NCBI GenBank assembly: GCA_019352195.1
Contig: JACAFG010000003.1
Coordinates: 956-64,955 of the forward strand
Source of the DNA: Candidatus Saccharimonadota bacterium
GTDB taxonomy: Bacteria > Patescibacteriota > Saccharimonadia > UBA4664
DNA length: 64,000 nucleotides
Direction of reading: 5' to 3'
The notes under the pieces were generated by a model. The model was not told the DNA's origin and searched no databases. It was given only the letters and a program-made list of their open reading frames with translations. The translations under genes were made by a program, and so were the position numbers. This document shows, piece by piece, positions 2,613 through 64,000 of this stretch. Each line of letters starts with the position of its first letter. The first letter of the stretch is position 1.

Positions 2613-3965
2613 TTATTTAGCCACCGAGGTACTGGCTCCCAGGACCGAGTTCGATGAGCTAGCCTGGGCCTGCACCGCAGTCGTATACGGCGCGGGCAAA
2701 TTGGGTCCAGCTGAGTTAATGAAGGCCTGAGGAGTGAGCGACGCCGAATCAATGAGATGGTTCATATAGTAAATAGCCAGCTCACGGTACTTGGAGTCGC
2801 TACCGCCGCCCGCCGGCGTGGTACAGCTGCCAATCGTGCCGTACAGCGTAATGTAGGCACCAATACTTGAGGTGCTCGAACACAGGAAGCCATTTTCCGT
2901 GGACCAGTTACCTTTTTCGATGTCCGTATCTGGATTGAGCGTTTTAGCGATGGGTGCAAACGCTACCATTTCGTCGGTCGACATATTGGTATCAACGTTC
3001 TCGCCCAGAATAGTCAGGTAGTGTGAAATGTCGCCAATATTACCGACAATACCAAGCGACTTTACTTTGGTTAAGACGGCACTTAACACCAGCATTTGCC
3101 GTTTAGATCGCGCAAAATCGCTCCCCTCGCCATTGTCGAGGCTATGACGGCTGCGCGAATAGATGAGCGCGGTATCCCCGTTCATGTGCTGCACGCCGGC
3201 GACAAAGCTCGGTGCGGGACGGATATAACCTGAGTAATTCCAGGTGGGATACTCGTAGTCAGTAAAGCCGTCAGGAACATCAATATCAACGCCGCCCAAG
3301 GTGTTTACCAAATCAACTTCGCCCTGCATATTAAACTTCACCCAATAATCGATATTAATGCCATACTCTTTGGCTACTTGGCCCGCGACAAATAGGCTGG
3401 CATACTGGGGATCTTTTTTGTTGCGCATGTAGGCATAGGCGTAAACTTCGCCGAATTTGGCAGTTTCGTAGCCGTCATTTATTTGCAGGTCGCGGGGAAT
3501 GTTAATGGTGACGAGTTTTTTCTGCTGCCAGTAATATGACGCTAGCATAATTGAATCGGTGCGCATGCCGTCTTTTGTCATGCCATAAATAAGAAAATTA
3601 GTCTGCCCGTTCGTCTGGCCTTTAAGCGTGGTAGTCTCCCCTATCGATTTCTTAACGACACTGGCGGCAATATTAAGAGCGCTGAGTTTGGTATTTGGGG
3701 TGTGGGGCCTAAATACCATTGCCGCTAAAGCCGCTACCACCAAAATTGGCAACATCAATAGCCCAAACACCAGGCCGCGGTGCTTACTGGTAGAGCGTTG
3801 CCGAACCTGGCGCGAAGGCCCCGCGATGGGAGTCTCGGGCGCCACGGAAATAATTACGGGATTAGGGGTTAGGGTAGTTGGATTGGTTGCGGCAACGCTG
3901 CGGCGGCCCCGTACGGGGCCGTCCAGACGCTGCCTTCGCCGTCCATCACCATTCGGATCAAGCAT
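2613..3965 (-). CDS. LytR-CpsA-Psr (LCP) family cell-envelope attachment protein
   Basis: N-terminal Pro-rich region and one TM helix, then the LCP core (DSIMLASYYWQQKKLVTINIPRDL...GGVDIDVP). The track ORF extends to 4133 and overlaps the upstream J-domain gene by 122 nt. I place the start at the internal ATG (MLDPNGDG) near 3965. Confidence 0.7.
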   Translation of the reverse strand: MLDPNGDGRRRQRLDGPVRGRRSVAATNPTTLTPNPVIISVAPETPIAGPSRQVRQRSTSKHRGLVFGLLMLPILVVAALAAMVFRPHTPNTKLSALNIAASVVKKSIGETTTLKGQTNGQTNFLIYGMTKDGMRTDSIMLASYYWQQKKLVTINIPRDLQINDGYETAKFGEVYAYAYMRNKKDPQYASLFVAGQVAKEYGINIDYWVKFNMQGEVDLVNTLGGVDIDVPDGFTDYEYPTWNYSGYIRPAPSFVAGVQHMNGDTALIYSRSRHSLDNGEGSDFARSKRQMLVLSAVLTKVKSLGIVGNIGDISHYLTILGENVDTNMSTDEMVAFAPIAKTLNPDTDIEKGNWSTENGFLCSSTSSIGAYITLYGTIGSCTTPAGGGSDSKYRELAIYYMNHLIDSASLTPQAFINSAGPNLPAPYTTAVQAQASSSNSVLGASTSVAK

Positions 3966-5096: not shown

Positions 5097-6410
5097 TTAG
5101 GCCGCTGGCGCCGGCTGGGGTGCCGGACTCAGGCGAATTGTTACGACATAGGCGATGACCACCGCCACAATCACCAGCGGCATCACATCGAGACCATCTG
5201 ATGACAAGAGCAACGTGGCGAGCAATATAGAGACCAAGGGAAACTTCAGCATAGAAACGGTCATTGCCCCCATGCCAATGGCAATGGCCGGCACTAACGA
5301 TAGGCCTGGCAAGTGAGACATGGCAATTCCCAAGGCGGCTCCAATAAACATAGCCGGAAAAGTTGGACCACCGCGGAAGCTCGAGAGCGAAATACCGTAA
5401 GACAGACCCTTCAAAACTATGAGCAGAACGAGCGTCCAAACCGGAAACGAGCTTGCATTAACAATGAGCGGTCCAAGTGACGATTCACCGGAATACAGGA
5501 CGTTGGTGGAGCTGTCACCGGTCGTGATACTGTAGCCAATGGCAAGTAAGGCCACTATCACACCGGCCATTACCGCTCCGCCGACGCCGAAACGCGAGGC
5601 GTAAGGCTTAACTCGAAAGCCAAGCCAGCGGATGGCCCGTATCACCAGCGGCGCAACTAAGCCCACTACGATTGCCCAACCGAATTCGGTAATCGTGGGT
5701 GCGCCGATATGAGGCAAATTAGGGATGGCGAGTGATAAGGTCCCGAGTCCGGTGAGCGATCCGAGGCCCAGAAAGATAAGGTAGCCGATACCAGCCGACA
5801 GTAAACCAGGAATTAAGACCATTTCCATGGTGGCACCACCCAGACCAGCAGCTTCCATCATAAGAAAGGCTCCCAGTAATGGCGAACCCAATAAGGCGGA
5901 GATGGCGGCAAAGCTACCGGACGCCGCGATCATAGCGCCGGCCTGATTTGGCAGATCTTTTTTGGCTTGCTTAACCGCCCAGTAGGCCAAGCCGCCGCCG
6001 ATTGCAATCAGCGGCCCTTCGGGACCAACTACCGCGCCGAGGCCGATGCTCGCAAGACTGGCGATAGCAATACCGGGGAGATTAGCCGGGATCGGTAAGC
6101 CGCCCGCTTTAAAGCCTTCGATTGGCATTTCGCCACCTTTGCCGGGCAGGTACTTGATAACAAGGCCGACAATGAGACCCGCCAATGTTAGTGGAATGAG
6201 CGGCCACCAGGTAGCGGCAGTGTGAGAGCTAATGTGGGCAGGAACGTCAGTAAAGAGCCACGTCTGCAGTTGGCCGGTCAGTGCCAAAAAGAAAAACGCC
6301 ACGACTGAGACAGGAATTCCAATAAGGGCCGCAATAACGAGTAACTGAATATAGGCCTTACTTCTCATAGGGGCGTAGGGATCGGGAGAAACGGCCGGCG
6401 TTGTACTCAT
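5097..6410 (-). CDS. ClC-family chloride channel / H+-Cl- antiporter (short form, no CBS domains)
   Basis: 437 aa polytopic membrane protein with ClC selectivity-filter-like motifs (GPEGPLIAIGGG, GGPTFPAMFIG). Confidence 0.65.
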   Translation of the reverse strand: MSTTPAVSPDPYAPMRSKAYIQLLVIAALIGIPVSVVAFFFLALTGQLQTWLFTDVPAHISSHTAATWWPLIPLTLAGLIVGLVIKYLPGKGGEMPIEGFKAGGLPIPANLPGIAIASLASIGLGAVVGPEGPLIAIGGGLAYWAVKQAKKDLPNQAGAMIAASGSFAAISALLGSPLLGAFLMMEAAGLGGATMEMVLIPGLLSAGIGYLIFLGLGSLTGLGTLSLAIPNLPHIGAPTITEFGWAIVVGLVAPLVIRAIRWLGFRVKPYASRFGVGGAVMAGVIVALLAIGYSITTGDSSTNVLYSGESSLGPLIVNASSFPVWTLVLLIVLKGLSYGISLSSFRGGPTFPAMFIGAALGIAMSHLPGLSLVPAIAIGMGAMTVSMLKFPLVSILLATLLLSSDGLDVMPLVIVAVVIAYVVTIRLSPAPQPAPAA

Positions 6411-8568: not shown

Positions 8569-9291
8569 TTATTTTTGAAGTATATATTTGCGCGAGTGCA
8601 CGGCCATCGCCACAAAACTCACGTTTTCACCGTTTGGTAGTGCAATCGTCACTTCGGTAATCATGCCGTTTGGCAGTCGCTGACTCATCGAGCAGGCCGC
8701 TCCGCCTAGGCTGACGTTAAGTAACTTGCCTATTACGTCGGGGTGGCTCGCGAAACGAAACGAACCCGGGGCCTGAAGTTCTATGCTGGTTGTTCGGCGT
8801 CGATTGGCGCCGGGTGAGGTCTTAGAAGTATGCATGTCATCTTGAGTCGTGCAGCTATATAAGAGGGCGATACGCTTAGTAGCCTGAATACTGGTGGCAA
8901 ATGACGCCACGCTCATGAATGGAGTTATGCCAATTCTTCCAGCGAGAAGCACTACGTCCGTGTACCGAGCGATGTCAAGCACGAAGCACCCGAACGGGCC
9001 ACGGACATCAACTACGTCACCTATCTGGGCCGCTGACAAGCCGCGGGTAAAAGGGCCGCGTGTGCGCATACTAAATTGGAGGATCTCCTGCTCGGTTGGC
9101 GAGCTCACTATGGAAAAACAGCGAGCTGGAGTAGGCCTTCCCCCCTTAAAGAAACTAATTGCAGCATATTGCCCTGGTTGAAAGGCAATTAACTGATTTG
9201 CATCTCTTGAACGGAGTGTTACAAGCAAAGTAGAAGCATTTATTTGCTCCGATGCTTCCACAACATACTTATACATGCTCTGTAAGGCCAC
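8569..9291 (-). CDS. FAD/NAD(P)-binding oxidoreductase of the ferredoxin-NADP reductase (FNR) superfamily
   Basis: RCFSIVSSP (RxYS FAD-binding motif) and LLAGRIGITPFMS (NAD-binding GxGxxP). Has an 80-aa C-terminal extension of unknown function. Confidence 0.6.
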   Translation of the reverse strand: MALQSMYKYVVEASEQINASTLLVTLRSRDANQLIAFQPGQYAAISFFKGGRPTPARCFSIVSSPTEQEILQFSMRTRGPFTRGLSAAQIGDVVDVRGPFGCFVLDIARYTDVVLLAGRIGITPFMSVASFATSIQATKRIALLYSCTTQDDMHTSKTSPGANRRRTTSIELQAPGSFRFASHPDVIGKLLNVSLGGAACSMSQRLPNGMITEVTIALPNGENVSFVAMAVHSRKYILQK

Positions 9292-12333: not shown

Positions 12334-12408
12334 GGGTTGGGCCTCTGATTCAACCTTTGAAGGTTGAATCAGAGGTGTCGCCACTGCGACCGTGGCGAAG
12401 TTGGTCAT

Positions 12409-12861
12409 TCAGACCAGGTTGGGTGCTTCAACCCGCAGGTAGGCGTACCCTGCATCGGTTCGGGTGAACCGGTGGGTTGTCCCGTTGCAGGAGACGCGAT
12501 GGATCACGGCTCCCACGGTAAGGGCGTCGACGTTGATGAGCATGTACTCATCATTGTCGGATGCTCCTCCCAGCTCGCCACGAATGACGAGTGCATAGCC
12601 GTTGGAACGGGCCGACCAGTCCAAGTGAACGCTGTCGGGCACCTCGTTAGGGTCATCGATTGCGGGGAACGATTCCTCGCCGTCGATGGTGGTGATCATG
12701 CCGGTTTCCTTGGCGAACGACGCCGTGACGCAGATGGGCGCCAGCTGAGCCGCCGCCAGTGCGTCGGTGGTGGAGTGAAACAGTCCCCCGGCGCGGTGGC
12801 CGAAGAAGCTGGCCACATCGGCCGCGGTGAGGGTCTCGCCGGTGGTGTGGTTCCAGGTCAT
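12409..12861 (-). CDS. hypothetical protein (150 aa), high-GC island cargo
   Basis: About 65% GC, and the amino-acid composition looks protein-like. The overlapping plus-strand ORF (12364..12963) is Gly/Arg/Val-rich and looks spurious. Confidence 0.4.
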   Translation of the reverse strand: MTWNHTTGETLTAADVASFFGHRAGGLFHSTTDALAAAQLAPICVTASFAKETGMITTIDGEESFPAIDDPNEVPDSVHLDWSARSNGYALVIRGELGGASDNDEYMLINVDALTVGAVIHRVSCNGTTHRFTRTDAGYAYLRVEAPNLV

Positions 12862-13153
12862 GGCAGGCTCCTAGGGCCTCGGGTCCGCGACGGTTCGCGG
12901 GATTGGTTCCTCGTGCGGCCGCAGCGAGGTACGAACGAAATCAAGTTTCTGGATCAGTTTTGATGCTATTTCACTGAACGCTAACTATAGTAGCATAAGC
13001 ATAAACTAATGTCAAGTTCCGAATACCAAACGCTCATGTAGGGAAACGGGGCTCGAACTTAAATAATAGCTTTGCGAAGGAGTAATTATGATACGGGAAA
13101 ATTGATCGAATCTCTAGCTGGTGTTTTGTGACTCTATGGAGCTGAATAAATCC

Positions 13154-18349: not shown

Positions 18350-18475
18350 AGAAAAGTTTTATCTTCAGTACATTTCGCGGTAGTGCTAGCTGCTTTTGCG
18401 CGAACTGTACTAAATCTAAAACTTTTCAAAACTATGGTGGACGCGAATTTTGGATCCGGTAAACGACGATATAAC

Positions 18476-53812: not shown

Positions 53813-54268
53813 ATGAAGTTTCTCGTATCAGATGTCGACACCGCCCGGCACGTGCTGGCGCTCGACCGACATCAGTCGCGCCACCCAGAGCTGTCGGCCG
53901 ATTTGGAGGCTGAATTCAAAGAGATGCGCCGGAAGTCGTCCGACAAGTACCTGCCCAAACGTCTGACCTATCTGGTGGACAGAGCCATCCAAAAGGCGGT
54001 CTTCAGCTACCGCCACGGACGCGACGCCAGTTTCGACATCGTGCTGGGCCGTTCCGACCGCAGTTACATCCGCGAGGTCGGTTGGGCCACCGACGAGCTC
54101 CACGTTCTGCTCGACCGCGATAGGCTCACGCTGAGGTTCGACTGGGACCTGGACGGCCTGCTCCGCGCTATCCGGGTGCAGCTGTTGCTTCCGACCGACG
54201 TACCCACCAATCTGACGGAGACCGTACTGGCCAGCCTATCGGCCAACGACGGCGGCGGCGACAGCTGA
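53813..54268 (+). CDS. hypothetical protein (151 aa), divergent from the previous gene
   Basis: ATG start. Only 8 bp separate the two divergent starts. Confidence 0.35.
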   Translation: MKFLVSDVDTARHVLALDRHQSRHPELSADLEAEFKEMRRKSSDKYLPKRLTYLVDRAIQKAVFSYRHGRDASFDIVLGRSDRSYIREVGWATDELHVLLDRDRLTLRFDWDLDGLLRAIRVQLLLPTDVPTNLTETVLASLSANDGGGDS

Positions 54269-54469
54269 ATCGCTACCCGGCGGAACCACCTTGTAAGAGG
54301 CTGGTTCCGCCGGGGATTTTGTCTTTTAGCATAAGTTCTAAAAAACTATTGACTCTAGACCTCGAAAGTTGTATTTTTTGATAGGTTTATACGCCTGAAG
54401 TTTGATGGCGGAACCACGCAGTACCTGCTGAGGCAATCCTTTGCAGACGTCCTAGAATAAGGACTGTAC

Positions 54470-55000
54470 ATGACCACCCTGGTAGCACCTGCCGGACGTA
54501 TGGCCAGCCTCACATCCGATAACAACGTTGTCATGTCGCACCGCCAAACGGCCGCCGCTCGGGCCGCCGCGCAGCAAGCTGCTCACCTCGAGCGTATCCG
54601 TGAGCATCTCCCCGAGATGATCACCCATGCGATCGAGCTCGCGCTTCAGCATGGTGACAGGCTGAACGCTGCCTGCGCCAAGCAGAAGCGTTCGGTCCCC
54701 ACCGCGCGCTGGCTGGCCTACAGTATCAATTTCGGCATGTTCCGCCAACTCACCCATCTCACGCTGTGTGAGGCCAAGACTGCCGAGCTCACCAAGATGG
54801 CGGCGGACATCGTCGTGGCCAGGGAGAAGGCCGACAAGGCGGCCAAGGTGGCCGACGACTCGGCCGTCGCCACCACCCCCGACAGGCTCACCGTGACCGT
54901 GTCGCGCACCGGCCTGTCGCTCACCGTCAGGTTCAGCCAGAAGTACCCGTCCAAGACCAACCAGGTCGCCACCAAGACCACAACCAAGACCTCCGCCTGA
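54470..55000 (+). CDS. hypothetical protein (176 aa; Ala/Lys-rich helical, Thr/Lys C-terminal tail)
   Basis: Preferred over the overlapping Gly-rich minus-strand ORF 54452..55213. Confidence 0.35.
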   Translation: MTTLVAPAGRMASLTSDNNVVMSHRQTAAARAAAQQAAHLERIREHLPEMITHAIELALQHGDRLNAACAKQKRSVPTARWLAYSINFGMFRQLTHLTLCEAKTAELTKMAADIVVAREKADKAAKVADDSAVATTPDRLTVTVSRTGLSLTVRFSQKYPSKTNQVATKTTTKTSA

Positions 55001-55127
55001 CCCATCCCATCTACCCTGATGGAGCCGCCTCAACCGAGATGGCTCCATCAGGAGTTTTGCTTTTATGGGGCTAAATAGCTTAAGGGCCCGCATCCGAGGT
55101 GGATGCGGGCCCTTTGAGGCAATGGGG

Positions 55128-55559
55128 TTATTCGCCCCAAGTAATGATGGCACACCACCCGGTTTCGAGGTTGGGGCCGTAGAACTTGATCCGGGCAACG
55201 GACACGTCGCCAAAGATGGCCTGCCACGTGTCGATATTTTCTTGACGAACCACTTCGCTCACGTATGTCACGTGATGTCCGAACGGCCGCGTGATCGTAA
55301 GTGCGGCATCTGCGCCGTGTTCCGGCAAGGCCGGAAATGGACAGGACATGAGGGAGGTGAGACGGCGCTGCTGAGCGCCAAATTCGACGGTGAGGCGCAC
55401 GGCCAAGGTGCATTCGTCTGCGGGGACGTAGCCTTCGGCGGGTTTGTGGCCGTTCATGCGCCACAAGATCTCGTCGATATCGGCGGTCACACCGTGGTAC
55501 GAAACCACATCGATGGTGCCAGTTGCCGGCGAGGCAACGACGGTTGATGTAGGGGTCAT
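55128..55559 (-). CDS. hypothetical acidic protein (143 aa)
   Basis: Overlaps the upstream gene by 4 nt (ATGA), which suggests a coupled pair. Confidence 0.4.
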   Translation of the reverse strand: MTPTSTVVASPATGTIDVVSYHGVTADIDEILWRMNGHKPAEGYVPADECTLAVRLTVEFGAQQRRLTSLMSCPFPALPEHGADAALTITRPFGHHVTYVSEVVRQENIDTWQAIFGDVSVARIKFYGPNLETGWCAIITWGE

Positions 55560-56035
55560 TTGGAGCCTTCCAGAGACGTAGGGGCATTGAGTCCGGTCGA
55601 CGGGTCGTCAGCCAGTGGCGGAAACAGTACAAACGTCTGCAGTTCGAGCTTGTCGGGGTCGTGCCCCACTTCAATGCGGTCGCAATCGCCAAACAGGCGG
55701 TTCCATCCAAAGATGTTGTGGCAGGTGCGGAGCCTTTCGATGAGCTCGGCGTCGTCGTCGATCTCGAGTTCGCCCGTGGCAATGGTGAGACTGGCCAAAA
55801 CAATCTGGCTGTCGGCGGCCAGGCGATATGGGGCCGAGAGCAAACCGGTGATCTTTTCACCGTCTACTTCGATGTCGACGGCCAACCAGTGCGACAAGTC
55901 GTCGGGGTCAAACGGGCGGGCTTCGCCCACACCGGCCAATACGTCGATGATGCACGTGACTTCTCGTTGCTGGGTTGGAATGCAGGCCCGGATGGCGAGT
56001 CGGCGGCGCTGTTGTTTAATAGTTGCTTCAGTCAT
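55556..56035 (-). CDS. hypothetical acidic protein (159 aa)
   Basis: The first gene of a two-gene unit downstream of the tuf terminator. Confidence 0.4.
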   Translation of the reverse strand: MTEATIKQQRRRLAIRACIPTQQREVTCIIDVLAGVGEARPFDPDDLSHWLAVDIEVDGEKITGLLSAPYRLAADSQIVLASLTIATGELEIDDDAELIERLRTCHNIFGWNRLFGDCDRIEVGHDPDKLELQTFVLFPPLADDPSTGLNAPTSLEGSK

Positions 56036-56258: not shown

Positions 56259-57443
56259 CTACTTGAGGATCTTGGTAACAACACCGGCACCAACAGTACG
56301 GCCACCTTCGCGGATAGCAAAGCGCAGGCCCTCTTCCATGGCGATTGGAGCGATGAGCTCAACCTTCATAGAAATGTTGTCGCCAGGCATAACCATCTCT
56401 ACGCCTTCAGGCAAGATAACGGCACCGGTAACATCGGTTGTGCGGATGTAGAACTGTGGCTTGTAGCCCTTGAAGAATGGGGTGTGACGGCCGCCTTCAT
56501 CTTTTGAGAGCACGTAAACTTCAGCTTCAAAGTCAGTGTGAGGAGTGATTGAACCGGGCTTAGCCAAAACTTGGCCGCGCTCGATGTCGTCGCGCTCAAT
56601 ACCGCGGAGCAAAGCACCCACGTTGTCGCCAGCCTGAGCGTCTGGGAGCAACTTCTTGAACATTTCTACACCAGTAACGGTGGTGTTCTTAGTGGGGCGG
56701 ATGCCGACGATTTCAACAGGATCGTTGACTGAGACTTTTCCCTGCTCGATACGACCGGTAGCAACCGTACCACGGCCCTTGATCGAGAAGACGTCTTCGA
56801 TAGGCATGAGGAACGGTTTGTCGATTTCGCGCTTGGGTTCTGGGAAGTAGTCATCCATGGCCTGAACGAGTTCGAGGACAGACTTCTCGGCATCAGCGTC
56901 GCCTTCAACAGCCTTGAGAGCCGAGCCCTTGATGACCGGAACGTTATCGCCATCGTAGTCGTACTTCGAAAGTAGTTCGCGGATTTCCATCTCGACGAGT
57001 TCAGCGAGTTCTGGGTCGGCCATGTCCATCTTGTTCATGAAGACAATGATGTTCGGAACACCAACCTGCTTGGCGAGCACAACGTGCTCACGAGTCTGAG
57101 GCATCGGACCATCGGCAGCTGACACAACGAGCACGGCGCCGTCGATCTGGGCAGCACCCGTGATCATGTTCTTAACGTAGTCGGCGTGACCAGGCATGTC
57201 GACGTGAGCGTAGTGGCGCTTTGCGCTCTCGTACTCTTGGTGCGAGGTCGCGATGGTAATACCACGCTGGCGCTCTTCGGGAGCGTTGTCGATTTGGTCG
57301 TAGTTAACGGCCTTGTTGATGTCGGACGGGAGGTGCTTAGCCAGCACCATGGTGATAGCCGCGGTCAAAGTGGTCTTACCGTGGTCCACGTGGCCCATGG
57401 TACCAACGTTGAGGTGCGGTTTGTTGCGCTCAAATGTTGCCAT
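56259..57443 (-). CDS. tuf: elongation factor Tu
   Basis: [22 protein letters not shown]. 394 aa. Confidence 0.95.
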
Positions 57444-57691
57444 TTTAAAACTCCTTTAATTGTTCCAATCCAGATGGCTGATCGCAAACTGCGATGTGGC
57501 CTTCGAGCTGGCGGGCCAGCAATCTGCCTTGGAACGAACAGTTAATCTATAAGTTGCTCAAGCATAAAAAGATGCCCGAAAAGGACCCTCGTATTATACG
57601 GAAAACGACCGTGCTTTGTAAAGGGTTTGGGGCTTTAAAACGAAGAAGCCGCCGACAAAATGTCAGCGGCTGGTGAAATGATGGTCCGGGC

Positions 57692-57732
57692 GGCCCATCG
57701 AGTGTCCGGGGGGGGTAGACTCTCGATGGGCC
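57692..57732. repeat. 15-bp-stem hairpin (ggcccatcgagtgtc / gactctcgatgggcc, loop cggggggggta) in the fusA-tuf spacer
   Basis: Read directly; one mismatch in the stem. Confidence 0.5.
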
Positions 57733-57893
57733 GCTGGGCTAGCCAACATAGCCGCGGCGGTGGCGGTTGGACTAGCAGACGATACGAGTAGGACGTGCCA
57801 GGTGGATCGGTGGGATCCATGGGCACCTGTGTTCAGGTCCAGTCGTATCGTTGTGGGCTGCGCGTCGGAAGCGCAGCCGGCAGGGAAGTTTGT

Positions 57894-57936
57894 GGACCGG
57901 CTGCCTACAATTACGTAGGTTGCTGGCAGCCGGTCC
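57894..57936. repeat. REP-like 13-bp inverted repeat tggaccggctgcc ... ggcagccggtcca. The GGCAGCCGG core recurs at 57872, 58134 and, inverted, 58192
   Basis: Read directly from the sequence. Confidence 0.5.
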
Positions 57937-58778
57937 AGAGAAGGACGATCCAGCATGGACCGAACTTCTGGGGAGAGAAGCGGCCTGAGAGGCCGTCTAG
58001 CGCTTCGAGCAGGTGGGCGTCACCCGTGCGAAGGTGCAGCCAAAGGCCGCCTCTCTCACCCGATGGACGCAGCAGAGCCGGCATAGCTCAACTGTATCCG
58101 TTTGTGGGGCACTGGCATTTAAGCCAGAAGTCGGGCAGCCGGGTCGCATGAAACGGCCCATTCGAAAGTTAATTCGTGGCCCTCGGTGGAGCCCGGCTGC
58201 CTTATTTCAGAGAACAGTAGATCAGCCCAGCGCAATGCCGTTCCGCCACCTGACTAACGACGTCCAAAATCCAGCCCAGAACTGCTGGTTTGCCTGTGCG
58301 GGGAATTCGGGAGTATCGTCTCTCTGAAAAAGCCTAAGGTCTATTTACAAACGAGTGGTCAAAGTGCATTTCTACAAAACAATTTGGCTTTCGCTTACGT
58401 TGCTTTGTAATTTCTATAGTACTCCGCTCAATTTTGAGCGTCAACCAGTAAAACCACGGGTAATACTATGTATTTATTATACATTTTTTACACTTCTTTG
58501 TCAAGGTACGATTAATGCCTTGGCTAAGCTTAAATCGCCTATAACTCTCGTGCTTGCTTATCGTCGCAATTATCGCCTGGCCATATTAGTGAAAACACCC
58601 CAGACGCTTGTCTAGGGTGTTTTCACTAACTTCGGGTTGCCTCTCTATCCTTGTCCCCGGCTTTATCCGGCAAGCGTAACAAGACGACGAGGCGAAAGGG
58701 CTCAGGAGTTGCGCCGGCGAGATTGGCCTATCGACAGACAATACGGAGCGGACGAGAACCGTAGCAGGTCGGGTTAAG

Positions 58779-60860
58779 TTACGCTTTGGCGGCCGCGCGC
58801 TTACCGATAATTTCTTCGGCAACGTTACGAGGGACTTCCTCGTAATGGTCGAACTCCATCGTGTTAGAGCCACGACCTTGGGTCATCGATCGCAATTGAG
58901 TGGTGTAGCCAAACATCTCGGCGAGCGGAACAAAGGCATCGATAACCTTGGCATTACCTCGGTCTTCCATTTTTTCGATGCGGCCGCGCTTAGAGTTGAG
59001 GTCGCCAATGACATCACCCATAAACTCTTCGGCCACCACTACTTCTACCTTCATAATGGGCTCGAGGATGATTGGGTCAGCGAGCTTAGCAGCAGCTTGG
59101 AAAGCCATAGAGCCGGCAATTTTGAAGGCCATTTCGTTGGAGTCGACGTCGTGGAACGATCCATCGTAAATGCGGGCCTTGATGTCCACCATGGGGAAAC
59201 CGGCTGAAATACCGTTTTGCATGGCTTCTTTGACGCCGTCTTCGGTTGGCTTGATGAACTCGCGAGGTACGACTCCGCCGACGATGCCATTTTCCCACTC
59301 GTAACCGCCGCCCGGCTCCATTGGTGTCAGCTCGATCCAAACGTCGCCGTACTGGCCACGACCACCACTCTGGCGGACGAACTTACCTTGGGCCTTGGCA
59401 GCCTTCTTGATGGTCTCGCGGTAGGCGACCTGAGGCTTACCGACGTTAGCTTCAACCTTAAACTCACGCTTCATGCGGTCGACGAGAATGTCGAGGTGGA
59501 GTTCACCCATACCTTCGAGGATGGTCTGGTTGGTCTGCTCGTCGGTGTGGACGCGGAAGGTCGGGTCTTCTTCGCCGAGGCGCTGAAGAGCATTACCCAT
59601 TTTCTCTTGGTCGCTCTTGGTCTTTGGTTCAACGGCAATTGAGATAACCGGCTCAGGGAAGACAATTGATTCCAGAATAACCGGCTTGTCGACGTCACTA
59701 ATGGTGTTGCCGGTGGTCGTATTTTTAAGACCTACAGCAGCGGCAATTTCACCGGCGTGGACTTCTTGGACTTCTTCGCGGTCGTTGGCGTGCATGAGCA
59801 CGATTCGGCCGACGCGCTCGCGTTCGCCCGTGGAGGCGTTTAAGACGTAAGAACCACTCTTGAGAATACCCGAGTAAACCCGGAAGAAAGCCAGCTTACC
59901 AATGAACGGATCGGTGGCAATCTTGAAGGCTAGGCCCGAGAAAGGCTCCACATCGTCGGGCTTGCGCTCGAGCTCGGCGCCGGTCTTGGGATCGGTACCA
60001 AAGACGGGCCCAATGTCGATTGGGCTCGGCAAGAAGTCGTTAACGGCGTCTAAGAGCTTTTCAACGATTACGCCGCGACCATCGCCACCTGATACGGCAA
60101 AGAAGGTACCGGTGAGTACGCTCTTACGAATGCAGAGTTTAATTTCGTCAATGCTCAGCTCTTCGCCGTTCAAGTACTTTTCCAAAATGGCATCATCGGC
60201 TTCGACCGCGTTTTCGATGAGATGGCTGCGATAGTTAGTGGCTTTTTCGAGCATGTCGGCCGGGATCTCGCCTTCAATGAGCTCGTGATCGTGATATTCC
60301 TTGTAGGTGTAGGCTTTCATTTCGATGAGGTCGATGATGCCGTTGATTTCCTGCTCAAAACCGATCGGGAGGTGGATTGGGTAGGCGCGCTTACTTAAGC
60401 GCTCGTGAATTGAGTCCAAAGACTTGTAGAAGTCGCCGCCGGTTTGGTTGATCTTGTTGATAAAGCAGATGCGCGGGACGCCGTACTTGTCGGCCTGGCG
60501 CCAAACGGTCTCAGACTGAGGCTCCACGCCCATTTTACCGTCAAAAATGGTGACTGCACCGTCGAGCACGCGCAAGGAACGCTCGACTTCAACCGTAAAG
60601 TCGATGTGACCAGGCGTATCGATGATGTTGATACGCTTGCCCTTCCAAAAACAGGTAGTGGCAGCCGAGGTAATGGTGATGCCACGCTCTTGTTCTTGCT
60701 CCATCCAGTCCATGGTGGCTTCACCCTGGTGAACTTCACCAATTTTGTGGGTCTTACCGGTGCGATACAAAATACCCTCAGTGGTCGTCGTTTTACCGGC
60801 GTCAATATGAGCAATAATACCTACGTTACGAGTGTTTTCGAGAGAGTATTCACGGGCCAT
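58779..60860 (-). CDS. fusA: elongation factor G
   Basis: [20 protein letters not shown]. 693 aa. Confidence 0.95.
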
Positions 60861-61458: not shown

Positions 61459-62375
61459 ACCCTGAATCTAAAAACCCCACCCCATCTGATATCCCAACAA
61501 GATCAGTACGTCATGCAACATGTAGCCGTCCCGGCTCCGCGGAAAAGAGCTGACTAAGTTTAGGTGTTCTTTCAGATAGTCAAAGGTGCATTCAACTTTC
61601 ACCCGGGCCGCCAGGAGCTTCTGTTGCCATCGGGCCATAACCTGGGCTTTCTGTTTGTAGTGAACGGGCGCCACTACGATGACACCCTGGTCTCGCCAGA
61701 GTCGTTTGCGGGCGATCTTATCACCGTAGTGGCTATCGCCGACCACGATCTTCGTCTCTGACCGTACCAGCCGGGGTGTAACGTGCCCGTCGTAGACATC
61801 GGCCGGTGTAAAGGTGACATTGCTGAGTCGTCCCTCCAGATCGACCGCAGCATGGATCTCAAATCCAAACCAGGCTCCTTGCCAGTTGTAGCCCCAGCCA
61901 GCGAGGCCAGCGGCGACTTTGTAGCGGTTCTGCCGGTGATCACGACACACCGGCAGTTTGGTGGAGTCCACCAGCCGCACTTCGGCCGGAACCAAGGGCT
62001 GCCCGAGGAGCTGGGGCAGCTTCGGCAACAGCCGGTGACAATGGGCCACAAATGCTCCATACGTACCAAGCTGTGGTACATCCGGATGATGGTACAGAAG
62101 GGCCCATTTGAAGATATCCTTGAGAGTACGCTGACAAGTATTAGAAAGACAGTTCCAGATGAGGAGGGTGATGATTTCACTGTTACGAGCCAGTTTGAGC
62201 CGGCCACCCTTCGGGCGGGCCGGCTCCGAAACGGTGTCGTCTATGACCACAAATAATCTACGATATGATGAGGCTGCAAAGAGCGCCTTTGGTATTCCTT
62301 GTTTGTGTTACAACTACAAGCTTACCAAGGCGCTTTTGCTTTGTTAACGGGTAATGAGGTTTTTAGATTCAGGGT
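61459..62375 (-). mobile_element. IS982-family insertion sequence (917 bp) with perfect 18-bp terminal inverted repeats ACCCTGAATCTAAAAACC
   Basis: Left IR 61459-61476 and right IR 62358-62375 are exact reverse complements. A single transposase ORF lies inside and ends within the IR. Confidence 0.8.
61468..62250 (-). CDS. IS982-family DDE transposase
   Basis: VDSTKLPVC ... FEIHAAVDLEGRL ... KVECTFDYLK. The DDE triad spacing and the C-terminal LLGYQ motif are typical of IS982. Confidence 0.75.
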   Translation of the reverse strand: MVIDDTVSEPARPKGGRLKLARNSEIITLLIWNCLSNTCQRTLKDIFKWALLYHHPDVPQLGTYGAFVAHCHRLLPKLPQLLGQPLVPAEVRLVDSTKLPVCRDHRQNRYKVAAGLAGWGYNWQGAWFGFEIHAAVDLEGRLSNVTFTPADVYDGHVTPRLVRSETKIVVGDSHYGDKIARKRLWRDQGVIVVAPVHYKQKAQVMARWQQKLLAARVKVECTFDYLKEHLNLVSSFPRSRDGYMLHDVLILLGYQMGWGF

Positions 62376-62465
62376 GGATATTGTTGATTTATTGCATCAT
62401 TCGTGGTATTAATTGCCTATCTCACGATTTACTCATGATCCACTCACCTTTGGAAAGGCCTACTT

Positions 62466-62888
62466 ATGAGTACACCGGGGGAGCTCCCCACAACTAGTAC
62501 CGATGAGATTCTCATCGTGGAAGCTGCCGGCATTCTCGGAGTCTCCACCGGCACCGTTTATTCCATGGTTCGGGACGGGCGCCTCATTCGCCGCACCAAT
62601 TCGCATGGTGGCCTGGTCTTCGTGCGCTCAGAGCTCGAAGCCACCCGGCTTGATCGCGACGAGCGAGCGCATGTCGATACCATCAGGGACAATTTGCCGG
62701 ACAGCCTCAGGGTTGCCCATGCCAAACTGCCGCGTACCACGATCTCCCCAGTGAGGTGGGCACCGAACGGTGACTACTCGAGCCTTCGTCTACCCAAAAT
62801 GATCTGGCGTACTGGGATGCCAGTGCCAGTATTTCTGCCGTCGTGCGGCGGCTCGAAAGGAATAGGTCATGAACGATCTCTCGTATAG
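62466..62888 (+). CDS. excisionase/MerR-type HTH (HTH_17) DNA-binding protein, paralog 1 (140 aa)
   Basis: ILIVEAAGILGVSTGTVYSMVRDGRLIRR. Confidence 0.6.
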   Translation: MSTPGELPTTSTDEILIVEAAGILGVSTGTVYSMVRDGRLIRRTNSHGGLVFVRSELEATRLDRDERAHVDTIRDNLPDSLRVAHAKLPRTTISPVRWAPNGDYSSLRLPKMIWRTGMPVPVFLPSCGGSKGIGHERSLV

Positions 62889-63093
62889 CGAAAATCTGCT
62901 CACTCCCGGTGAAGTGGCCTTATTGTTTCGGGTCGACCCCAAAACGGTCTCTCGTTGGGCCGCGGCCGGCCGCATTGGCTGCATCCGGACGCCCGGCGGA
63001 CATCGGCGTTTCCGTGAGAGTGAGGTCAACGCCTTGTTGGCCGTGCGTTTGAAGGGAGCAGCAGACGATGGATGCCAACTCGCCCCCGTCTGA
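62869..63093 (+). CDS. BldC-like small MerR-family regulator (HTH_17), paralog 2 (74 aa)
   Basis: LLTPGEVALLFRVDPKTVSRWAAAGRIGCIRTPGGHRRFRESEVNALLA closely matches the Streptomyces BldC core as I recall it (LLTPAEVATMFRVDPKTVTRWAKAGKL..IRTLGGHRRYREAEV). Confidence 0.6.
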   Translation: MNDLSYSENLLTPGEVALLFRVDPKTVSRWAAAGRIGCIRTPGGHRRFRESEVNALLAVRLKGAADDGCQLAPV

Positions 63094-63307
63094 TGACTAC
63101 GATTTTTTGACCACCACAGAAGCGGCCACAATCCTCCGAGTGAGCAAGGCCACCATCTGGCGTTTGATTGACTCGGGCCGGATGAAGGCTTATCGCGTTC
63201 GTCGATCCTGGCGTATTTCGCGAGCCGACCTCGAGGATTTCATCAAAGTCGGCCTGCACGATCCAGATAACGATCCCACTACGGCGTACGGAACGAGACA
63301 CTCATGA
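63068..63307 (+). CDS. excisionase-family HTH (HTH_17) DNA-binding protein, paralog 3 (79 aa)
   Basis: FLTTTEAATILRVSKATIWRLIDSGRMKAYRVRRSWRISRADLEDFIK. Confidence 0.65.
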   Translation: MDANSPPSDDYDFLTTTEAATILRVSKATIWRLIDSGRMKAYRVRRSWRISRADLEDFIKVGLHDPDNDPTTAYGTRHS

Positions 63308-63504
63308 CAAACCACACGTACTTGCCTGGGTGTTATCAAGAGACGCGCCTCACACCTGATCGTGGCGAAATTTCCATCATGTTCATGGCACGTCGCGGCC
63401 GTGAACCGCTGATAATGTGGCTCACTGCACTGTCTCGTCGTTGTTCCGAGGCAGAATGTTCGAACTTTTGTCCGGCCTCAGCCTGGTTTTGTTCCGTCCA
63501 CTAG
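63304..63504 (+). CDS. small Cys-rich ORF (66 aa) overlapping paralog 3 by ATGA
   Basis: Its position in the tightly overlapping cluster is the only support. Confidence 0.2.
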   Translation: MTNHTYLPGCYQETRLTPDRGEISIMFMARRGREPLIMWLTALSRRCSEAECSNFCPASAWFCSVH

Positions 63505-63567
63505 CTCTACGAGCTGTTGCCGCCGTCTGGCGCGTTGAACCAACGCCTCAGGCGGCGGTTCTTCGTT

Positions 63568-64000
63568 TTAGAGGCCAGCCGAACGTTGCGCCAGCTCGCC
63601 TGACAGCTTGTCGTAACCGCTCACCGTCATACACAAGATGACGTCACCGGCTTTAGCATCAGCAATAACCGTCTCAACGAGTTTGGCGCGGTCGGGCTCG
63701 TATGTTGTTGAGGCGCCAATGCCAGTTGCTACATCGGCTCCGCTAACCGAGGCTTCTTGCCCCGCTTCGCGCGCGCCTTCAATACCCGTGATATATGCTT
63801 TGTCGGCTTCGCCGAAGGCGTGCTGAAACTCGTGCAACAGCGTTTTGGTACGAGAATAGGTGTGAGGGCGGAAAATTGCGACAACTCGCCGACCGGCAAA
63901 ATGCAGTTTGGCCGCCTGAATGGTAGCCGCCACTTCAGTGGGGTGATGCGCGTAGTCATCGATAACGGTAACGGGTGACGTGGGCATCGAAACCACATTG
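63568..64000 (-). CDS. murC: Mur ligase C-terminal domain (MurC-like); N-terminus lies beyond the window end
   Basis: [20 protein letters not shown]...[19 protein letters not shown]...[13 protein letters not shown] matches the C-terminal domain pattern of UDP-N-acetylmuramate-L-alanine ligase. Confidence 0.6.

Follow-up and report, generated by a model that had tools for sequence, protein, structure and literature searches.

A candidate hairpin-rich non-coding RNA gene between fusA and tuf in a Saccharibacteria genome

A 64-kb stretch of DNA from a Candidatus Saccharimonadota genome (assembly GCA_019352195.1, contig JACAFG010000003.1, positions 956 to 64,955 of the forward strand), referred to here as the window, carries fusA (58779–60860) and tuf (56259–57443) on the minus strand. 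The gap between them (57444–58778) is the subject of this analysis and contains a candidate gene for a structured non-coding RNA. An original prediction had drawn attention to the 1335-bp distance between two genes that are usually adjacent. The distance was confirmed; in other bacteria the median fusA-tuf gap is 144 bp (n = 112 fetched loci). A total of 190 loci were fetched, and those of relatives are identified by number (L162, L163, L173 and so on). The depositor's public annotation (GCA_017884045.1, JABBYD010000024.1) has no called gene in the gap. The GC content is 0.36–0.38 around 58300–58600, in agreement with the AT-rich tract that the prediction placed at 58340–58600.

Open reading frames (ORFs) of 97–118 aa are found on both strands of the gap and overlap one another. 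The six-frame ORFs had no Pfam match, and the spread of GC content between codon positions is 0.02–0.20 in the gap compared to 0.26–0.40 in the window's real genes, GC-rich accessory ORFs included. The eight longest open frames of the gap were joined into a 759-aa concatenate, a query designed to pick up spurious ORF calls on related spacers, and no match was found among 5.8 billion proteins. These data support the earlier statement that the spacer holds no credible ORF. Missed small or unusual proteins would explain these frames as well as the 190–224-aa ORFs that gene callers predict on the equivalent spacer of L165 and L167, where the calls are Arg/Pro-rich, lie on the opposite strand and look spurious. 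Such proteins are exceedingly unlikely, given ORFs that overlap on both strands and lack a homolog, a Pfam domain or a codon-position signal. Comparisons by tblastx between the spacers detected no coding conservation, and the frame is not conserved between the spacer ORFs and L162, the closest relative.

The covariance scan suggested with the original prediction matched no family in the spacer. Rfam 15 applied to the whole window at the gathering threshold returned four tRNAs only, and a scan of 57300–58900 with E values up to 10 returned only sub-threshold look-alikes of miRNA hairpins. There was no covariance-model match in the spacer to GOLLD, ROOL, OLE, HEARO, raiA, 6S, RNase P, tmRNA, SRP, riboswitches or group I/II introns, and an ARAGORN scan for tRNA and tmRNA detected none in the spacer. 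Read from the end of fusA to the start of tuf, the interval has the following features.

58586–58629, minus strand: 20-bp hairpin about 150 nt after the fusA stop codon; arms 95% complementary; no U-tract.
58476–58504, minus strand: promoter P1, TTGACA-17-TATAAT, 12 of 12 consensus positions; predicted transcription start near 58469.
58416–58444, minus strand: promoter-like site P2, TTGACG-17-TACTAT; possible second start near 58409.
58360–58446, minus strand: conserved AT-rich 5' domain with a hairpin (ACAAAG...CUUUUGU) and the motif UUUUGUAGAA..ACUUU.
58134–58201, minus strand: hairpin A; outer stem GGCAGCCGGGC / (G)CCCGGCUGCC, which comprises two of the motif copies in the original prediction.
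58112–58127 and 58065–58099, minus strand: hairpins c and d; the loop of d is UAUGCCG at 58079–58085.
57970–58061, minus strand: hairpin B; 16-bp outer stem GGGUGAGAGAGGCGGCC / GGCCGCUUCUCUCCCC and a variable apical part.
57893–57937, 57856–57878 and 57780–57850, minus strand: three further hairpins absent from L162, the first formed by a second GGCAGCCGG pair.
57690–57734, minus strand: hairpin f, 17 bp; apical loop UACCCCCCCCG with a C8 run at 57708–57715.
57637–57671, minus strand: intrinsic terminator; 11-bp stem followed by UUCUUCGUUUU (U-tract).
57593–57622, minus strand: tuf's own promoter, TTTACA-18-TATAAT, 11 of 12 consensus positions, starting about 15 nt after the terminator.
57444–57592, minus strand: tuf 5' leader of about 140 nt with a 19-bp hairpin (57462–57480/57517–57535) and the Shine-Dalgarno sequence AAGGAG.

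Promoter P1 is the sole perfect TTGACA-N17-TATAAT in the window, where 0.00 are expected by chance. The promoters are followed by an AT-rich domain of about 110 nt and then by a body of about 650 nt with 58–69% GC that folds into about ten hairpins. A conserved sequence, CCGGACCAUCAU, lies directly after hairpin f at 57678–57689. The segment at 57444–57592 is part of tuf and does not belong to the RNA unit. A non-coding RNA gene is recognized generically by its own promoter and its own terminator on one strand and by the lack of an ORF, and the unit has all of these properties. Judging from the sequence, the gap probably contains, and we say so with modest confidence, an independent gene of about 0.8 kb that has a strong promoter, specifies a hairpin-rich non-coding RNA and is lineage-specific and fast-evolving. 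The arms of hairpin A resemble P4 of RNase P (CCGGGCUCCA / ACCCGGCU); this identity was rejected because the likeness is of chance-level length and has no Rfam support.

Fold stability was compared with dinucleotide shuffles, as had been suggested with the original prediction. The 831-nt minus-strand RNA has z = −15.3 and folds 86 kcal/mol better than its shuffles, and the plus strand has z = −7.6. A 720-nt segment of the body has z = −10.2 and a free energy 78 kcal/mol below shuffles, and the values for 15 control segments of the window lie between +1.9 and −6.1. No other stretch tested in the window folds as strongly as the gap, which makes up 2% of the window yet contains at least 4 of its 31 long hairpins. 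Two hairpins in the prediction are present with corrected dimensions. The hairpin given as 15 bp (57692–57732) has 17-nt arms that are 94% complementary (57690–57706/57718–57734), and the 13-bp inverted repeat at 57894/57925 has 18-nt arms that are 89% complementary (57893–57910/57920–57937). The second most structured 720-nt segment tested is 54480–55199 (z = −6.1 for the plus and −4.7 for the minus strand), a region of GC-rich accessory ORFs with long overlapping frames on both strands and a pair of perfect short hairpins at 55015–55114. The longest hairpin of the window, located at 18351–18427 between the genes for tRNA-Tyr and tRNA-Thr, is an inverted repeat with 29-nt arms that are 86% complementary and 19 nt apart.

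The recurrent motif on which the original prediction was built was then located. The form GGCAGCCGGKYC has three matches (57894−, 57925+ and 58134+) versus 0.04 expected by chance. Its 9-mer core GGCAGCCGG has four matches in the window, all in the spacer, the fourth being 58193−. The claim of four core copies stands, except that the site at 57872 is a partial match only (GCGCAGCCGGCA) and that the copies are not dispersed units: they are the paired arms of two hairpins, 57893–57937 and 58134–58201. The shared core suggests that the first of these arose by internal duplication of hairpin A, and the window is about 190 nt longer than L162 at 57780–57937.

The prediction had read these palindromes as mobile repeats of the repetitive extragenic palindrome (REP) or miniature inverted-repeat transposable element (MITE) type. 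A cluster of such elements, or of bacterial interspersed mosaic elements (BIMEs), is very unlikely. The many palindromes within 1.3 kb and the core shared by two hairpins are what such a cluster would offer, and the spacer has in common with these families, which lie between genes expressed in tandem or convergently, that imperfect palindromes are clustered outside coding sequence. The four core copies are all hairpin arms in the spacer, and no further GGCAGCCGG copy occurs in the rest of the 64-kb window or in the 190 fetched loci. The whole spacer has no second copy there, and BLAST searches of phage and plasmid collections gave no match. Scans of viral contigs gave 0 matches to a hairpin B pattern and 9 matches to the P2 16-mer, none beyond 23 bases, which is the chance level. 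No terminal inverted repeats bracket the unit. The only flanking direct repeat is the 10-mer TGCTTTGTAA at 57612 and 58401; chance alone is estimated to give about 0.85 such repeats in a sequence of 1335 nt. There is no shared palindrome consensus of 20–40 nt; the roughly ten hairpins are unrelated in sequence, apart from the two that share the 9–10-nt core. In contrast to mobile palindromes, the element is single-copy in the window and fetched loci, lacks terminal inverted repeats and target-site duplications, has a promoter and a terminator of its own and, instead of being scattered, has a collinear ortholog in L162. REP elements typically number tens to hundreds of extragenic copies per genome and go with a RAYT (TnpA-REP) transposase; the only transposase seen near the spacer is a DDE_Tnp_1 insertion sequence (IS) at 61468–62250. 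In L163 the same 47-nt palindrome (AAACCGCCACCCGAAGGCGACAA / TTGTCGCGCCC..GGCGG.TT) is present twice, at 2229–2275 and 2996–3042, behind different genes, and is a truly repeated, terminator-like palindrome in a relative.

Relatives were sought with EF-G as the query. A species-representative genome collection and a JGI metagenome scan yielded none above 72% EF-G identity and no locus with DNA similarity to the spacer. A large protein collection contained close relatives at 88–94% EF-G identity, and their contigs were fetched. The closest is L162, with an EF-G that is 94% identical. At the four-fold degenerate sites of fusA, identity of the window to L162 is only 51%, which shows that neutral sequence is saturated between them. 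The two spacers nevertheless share 14 collinear anchors with similar spacing: P1, P2, the 5' hairpin, UUUUGUAGAA..ACUUU, hairpins A, c, d and B, hairpin f followed by CCGG(A)CCAUCAU, and the terminator. The counterpart of P1 is at L162 7161–7189 with 11 of 12 consensus positions, and the P2 16-mer GGTTGACGCTCAAAAT is identical in L162 despite the saturation. The 5' domain is 71% identical over 91 nt, and its UUUUGUAGAA..ACUUU motif is also found in the L173 spacer at 6189. The tuf leader is 81% identical to L162 over 165 nt.

The stems appear to be conserved along with the anchors. Six shared helices comprising 63 pairs were compared in a hand alignment of the window with this single ortholog; 43 pairs are unchanged, 6 differ on one side and 12 carry compensating changes on both sides; one further pair is broken and one falls in a gap. 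Pairing is kept in 99% of cells compared to 38–48% when the partner is slid by 1–3 columns, and column identity is 75% at paired and 46% at unpaired positions. The clearest case is hairpin d, which has an identical UAUGCCG loop and an inner stem changed from GAGC/GCUC to GGCU/AGCC through three compensated pairs. The stem of hairpin A is GGUAGCCGGGCC / GGCCCGGCUACC in L162, with a C-G pair replaced by U-A. Hairpin B keeps its stem with a G-U to A-U change and has a replaced apex, and the terminator ortholog (L162 7860–7885) has three compensated pairs. An unsupervised MAFFT and RNAalifold run recovered hairpins A and B. An ATGC/CATGC loop motif is modestly enriched and mostly specific to L162. 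The conserved promoters and loops and the compensated stems, at saturated neutral divergence, indicate that the element has probably been under selection since the split from L162. Together with the consensus promoter, the intrinsic terminator, the lack of a coding signal and the extreme fold stability, the ortholog with its compensated stems supports the structured non-coding RNA that the original prediction had listed as its alternative.

The fusA-tuf interval was compared across the Saccharibacteria clade. It is a hypervariable slot between a separately transcribed fusA and tuf, so that the description of the spacer as inserted into an operon needs rewording; the two genes are separate transcription units in this clade. 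Non-coding GC-rich DNA of 0.8–1.6 kb occupies the slot in six independent lineages (window, L162, L163, L165–167, L173 and L175). Four lineages have an antisense gene of 713–729 aa, PD40/Tricorn-like plus GDSL-lipase; one lineage has six antisense genes, and one has three sense genes, a NUDIX hydrolase among them. The slots with protein genes were found among L164, L168, L169–172, L174 and L176–185. These data identify the fusA-tuf junction as an accessory-gene hotspot in this clade. DNA conservation across all relatives is confined to the last ~190 nt of the interval, which are the tuf promoter and leader. The spacers of more distant relatives are unrelated in sequence. The five non-coding spacers other than that of the window are comparably structured, with sense-strand z values from −7.8 to −12.9, and the sense-strand z is more extreme than the antisense z in six of six spacers (window and relatives).

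The str/S10 cluster around the slot is broken up as well (53813–56035 and 61468–64000). The stretch from tuf to rpsJ contains five GC-rich ORFs, on both strands, that carry no annotation, and the place upstream of fusA usually taken by rpsL-rpsG holds the DDE_Tnp_1 IS and three HTH_17 genes. Downstream of tuf, L173 9076–9130 has a weak match to a type III hammerhead ribozyme (30.3 bits versus a gathering score of 48.5, E = 0.015).

The position of the terminators bears on where transcription begins. A sense-strand intrinsic terminator lies directly upstream of the tuf promoter in all five lineages with a complete spacer (window, L162, L163, L173 and L175), and several of these have a separate terminator right after fusA. 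Canonical terminators are found at the place that matches the post-fusA hairpin in L163 (7098–7137), L173 (6105–6118) and L166 (4569–4584), and the hairpin in the window may be a 3'-end, stabilizer or terminator hairpin of fusA. Because fusA already ends in a hairpin or terminator of its own, another terminator in front of the tuf promoter makes sense only with a start inside the spacer, and internal transcription is implied. The spacer could instead be a cis-acting part of the fusA and tuf mRNAs, either a long structured fusA 3' untranslated region or a tuf leader with a distal promoter, with the hairpins acting as RNase III or stability elements and the terminator as an attenuator. The element lies on the strand of both genes, and several stems reach 17–20 bp. 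Read-through past fusA is plausible because the post-fusA hairpin has no U-tract, and a tRNA-like gene in the slot of L166 recalls the tRNA-tufB operon. The strong terminator just before the near-consensus proximal tuf promoter points the other way, to insulation and not co-transcription. The tuf promoter is kept in every relative examined (L162, L163, L173 and L175), and relatives with antisense slot genes would, from their sequences, express tuf from an equivalent proximal promoter. No riboswitch or leader family matches the spacer. On balance, a cis-acting role is unlikely.

The L166 gene (4885–5000) lies in the spacer between fusA and tuf, and the EF-G of this relative is 90% identical. 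It scores 41 bits with the Rfam tRNA model (gathering score 29), has 49 nt at the place of the anticodon loop and is not called by ARAGORN. The gene may be a pseudogene or a tRNA that is interrupted or contains an intron. L165, L166 and L167 are the three contigs fetched of seven that carry this EF-G, and two of them (L166 and L167) break off within the GC-rich spacer or directly behind it.

The C8 run in the loop of hairpin f is the only run of at least seven C or G in the window. It stands out because G/C homopolymers are strongly depleted there: G6/C6 was observed 4 times compared to 30.8 ± 7.6 expected from dinucleotide shuffles, and three of the four are the single C8 run. A C8–C10 run in the apical loop of a 13–17-bp hairpin is found in the window, L163, L166 and L173, or in five of the six spacers if L175 is counted, and the stems are unrelated. 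A C8 run was detected in only 3 of 161 unrelated loci (~1.6 Mb in total). A G-rich target for the loop is not evident in the window, which has one other G6 run in 64 kb (9140–9145).

The spacer may also be considered as the non-functional debris of an accessory cassette or insertion, with a leftover promoter and terminator and hairpins that are a by-product of GC-rich palindromic DNA. This explanation is unlikely. It draws on a slot that turns over fast and has unrelated contents in sibling lineages, on a body recognizable in one relative only, and on a protein cassette elsewhere in the window (12342–13010) with an equal layout of promoter, AT-rich leader, GC-rich body and terminator. Debris does not readily account for the collinear order of promoters, loops and stems, which are retained although neutral sites are saturated (51% identity) and in which 12 pairs are compensated and one is broken, or for a C8 run that persists in a genome that removes such runs. 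The spacer also has no residual codon periodicity and no likeness to any of the 5.8 billion proteins or to the slot proteins of relatives, which gave no significant tblastn match in it when queried for a pseudogene. The cassette at 12342–13010 (minus strand) contains an unannotated, GC-rich ORF of 150 aa (12409–12861) directly after tRNA-Trp, with a near-consensus promoter and a perfect 16-bp terminator hairpin (12342–12375). Unlike the spacer, this ORF has a clear codon-position GC signal (0.61/0.50/0.79).

Several results weigh against an independent RNA gene. L162 is the one detectable ortholog, and the hand alignment was made with the structure in view, which is why the helix counts lean toward structure. 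The covariance model R1, built from the window and L162, matches only its own two training sequences among 16 sources, and no 12-mer is common to the spacers beyond chance; the six non-coding spacers therefore need not have a common origin. The excess of sense-strand z is partly compositional. Shuffles of the G-rich antisense strand fold better, and for this reason the strand call from z-scores was not relied on. No strict consensus promoter is found within the L173, L166 or L175 spacers. The poly-C run of L175 is on the opposite strand, and L162 has a C6 run only, in a linker outside any loop. Protein genes occupy the slot instead in at least six sibling lineages, which implies that the RNA is dispensable or replaceable.

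Given an independent RNA gene, transcription is predicted to start at the sigma-70 promoter P1 near 58469, with P2 perhaps providing a second start near 58409. The transcript would consist of the conserved AT-rich 5' domain followed by the GC-rich body of about ten hairpins, and it would stop at the terminator (57671–57637) about 15 nt upstream of the conserved tuf promoter. The predicted product is an RNA of about 0.77–0.83 kb that is presumably made and stable. The string of hairpins would serve as a stable scaffold. The RNA may act through exposed loops, namely the C8 apical loop and the conserved UAUGCCG loop, by binding a G-rich RNA or a protein, and the likely contact points are the conserved single-stranded parts (the C8 loop, the UAUGCCG loop and the 5' motif).

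The candidate resembles GOLLD, ROOL, OLE, HEARO and raiA in its size class (~0.6–0.8 kb), its stand-alone organization, its many helices, the lack of an ORF and a GC content above that of its context. Those families have many invariant nucleotides over a wide phylogeny, whereas the spacer RNA is recognizable in one relative with 94% EF-G identity, and it is predicted to fold into a series of separate hairpins, with no visible long-range or pseudoknot architecture. The C8 loop has its closest functional parallel in the 6C RNA of Actinobacteria (RF01066) and in RsaE/RoxS, which also have a stable hairpin with at least six C in the apical loop. The C-rich loops of these small RNAs (sRNAs) are seeds that pair with G-rich mRNA sites. 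The 6C RNA belongs to another phylum and has two stem-loops, each with at least six C, in an sRNA of ~60–100 nt, whereas the spacer unit has one C8 loop in about 800 nt. The spacer RNA is ten times longer and has no covariance-model match; the resemblance would be functional only. Stable RNA genes are co-transcribed with tufB in Escherichia coli, and the tRNA-tufB arrangement is similar in that a strongly promoted, structured non-coding RNA gene (predicted in the spacer) lies directly upstream of tuf on the same strand. It differs in that the spacer RNA is not a tRNA and is separated from tuf by a terminator and by tuf's own promoter.

To our knowledge, almost nothing is known of non-coding RNAs in Saccharibacteria and other bacteria of the candidate phyla radiation (CPR), which have genomes of about 1 Mb. 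If the candidate is real, such a cell would be investing substantially in a 0.8-kb non-coding unit driven by the best promoter in 64 kb, and the unit would rank among very few large structured RNA candidates from the CPR. In this clade the near-universal adjacency of fusA and tuf has been turned into a hypervariable accessory slot. The poly-C loop, kept against the purge of G/C runs, provides an experimental handle for pull-downs, target searches and a test of phase variation. If the spacer proved to be debris, it would be a clear case in which compensatory-looking hairpin conservation misleads. A broader idea, which we put forward tentatively and consider doubtful, is that the slot of this clade holds a new class of large hairpin-string RNAs of 0.6–1.3 kb, highly expressed, with near-neutral sequence turnover and compensated stems, in which the C8–C10 apical loop, retained in genomes that otherwise eliminate G/C homopolymers, would be dedicated to the recognition of a protein or a G-rich RNA. 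If true, this would give ultra-small episymbiotic bacteria a new type of abundant RNA with a regulatory or scaffolding role.

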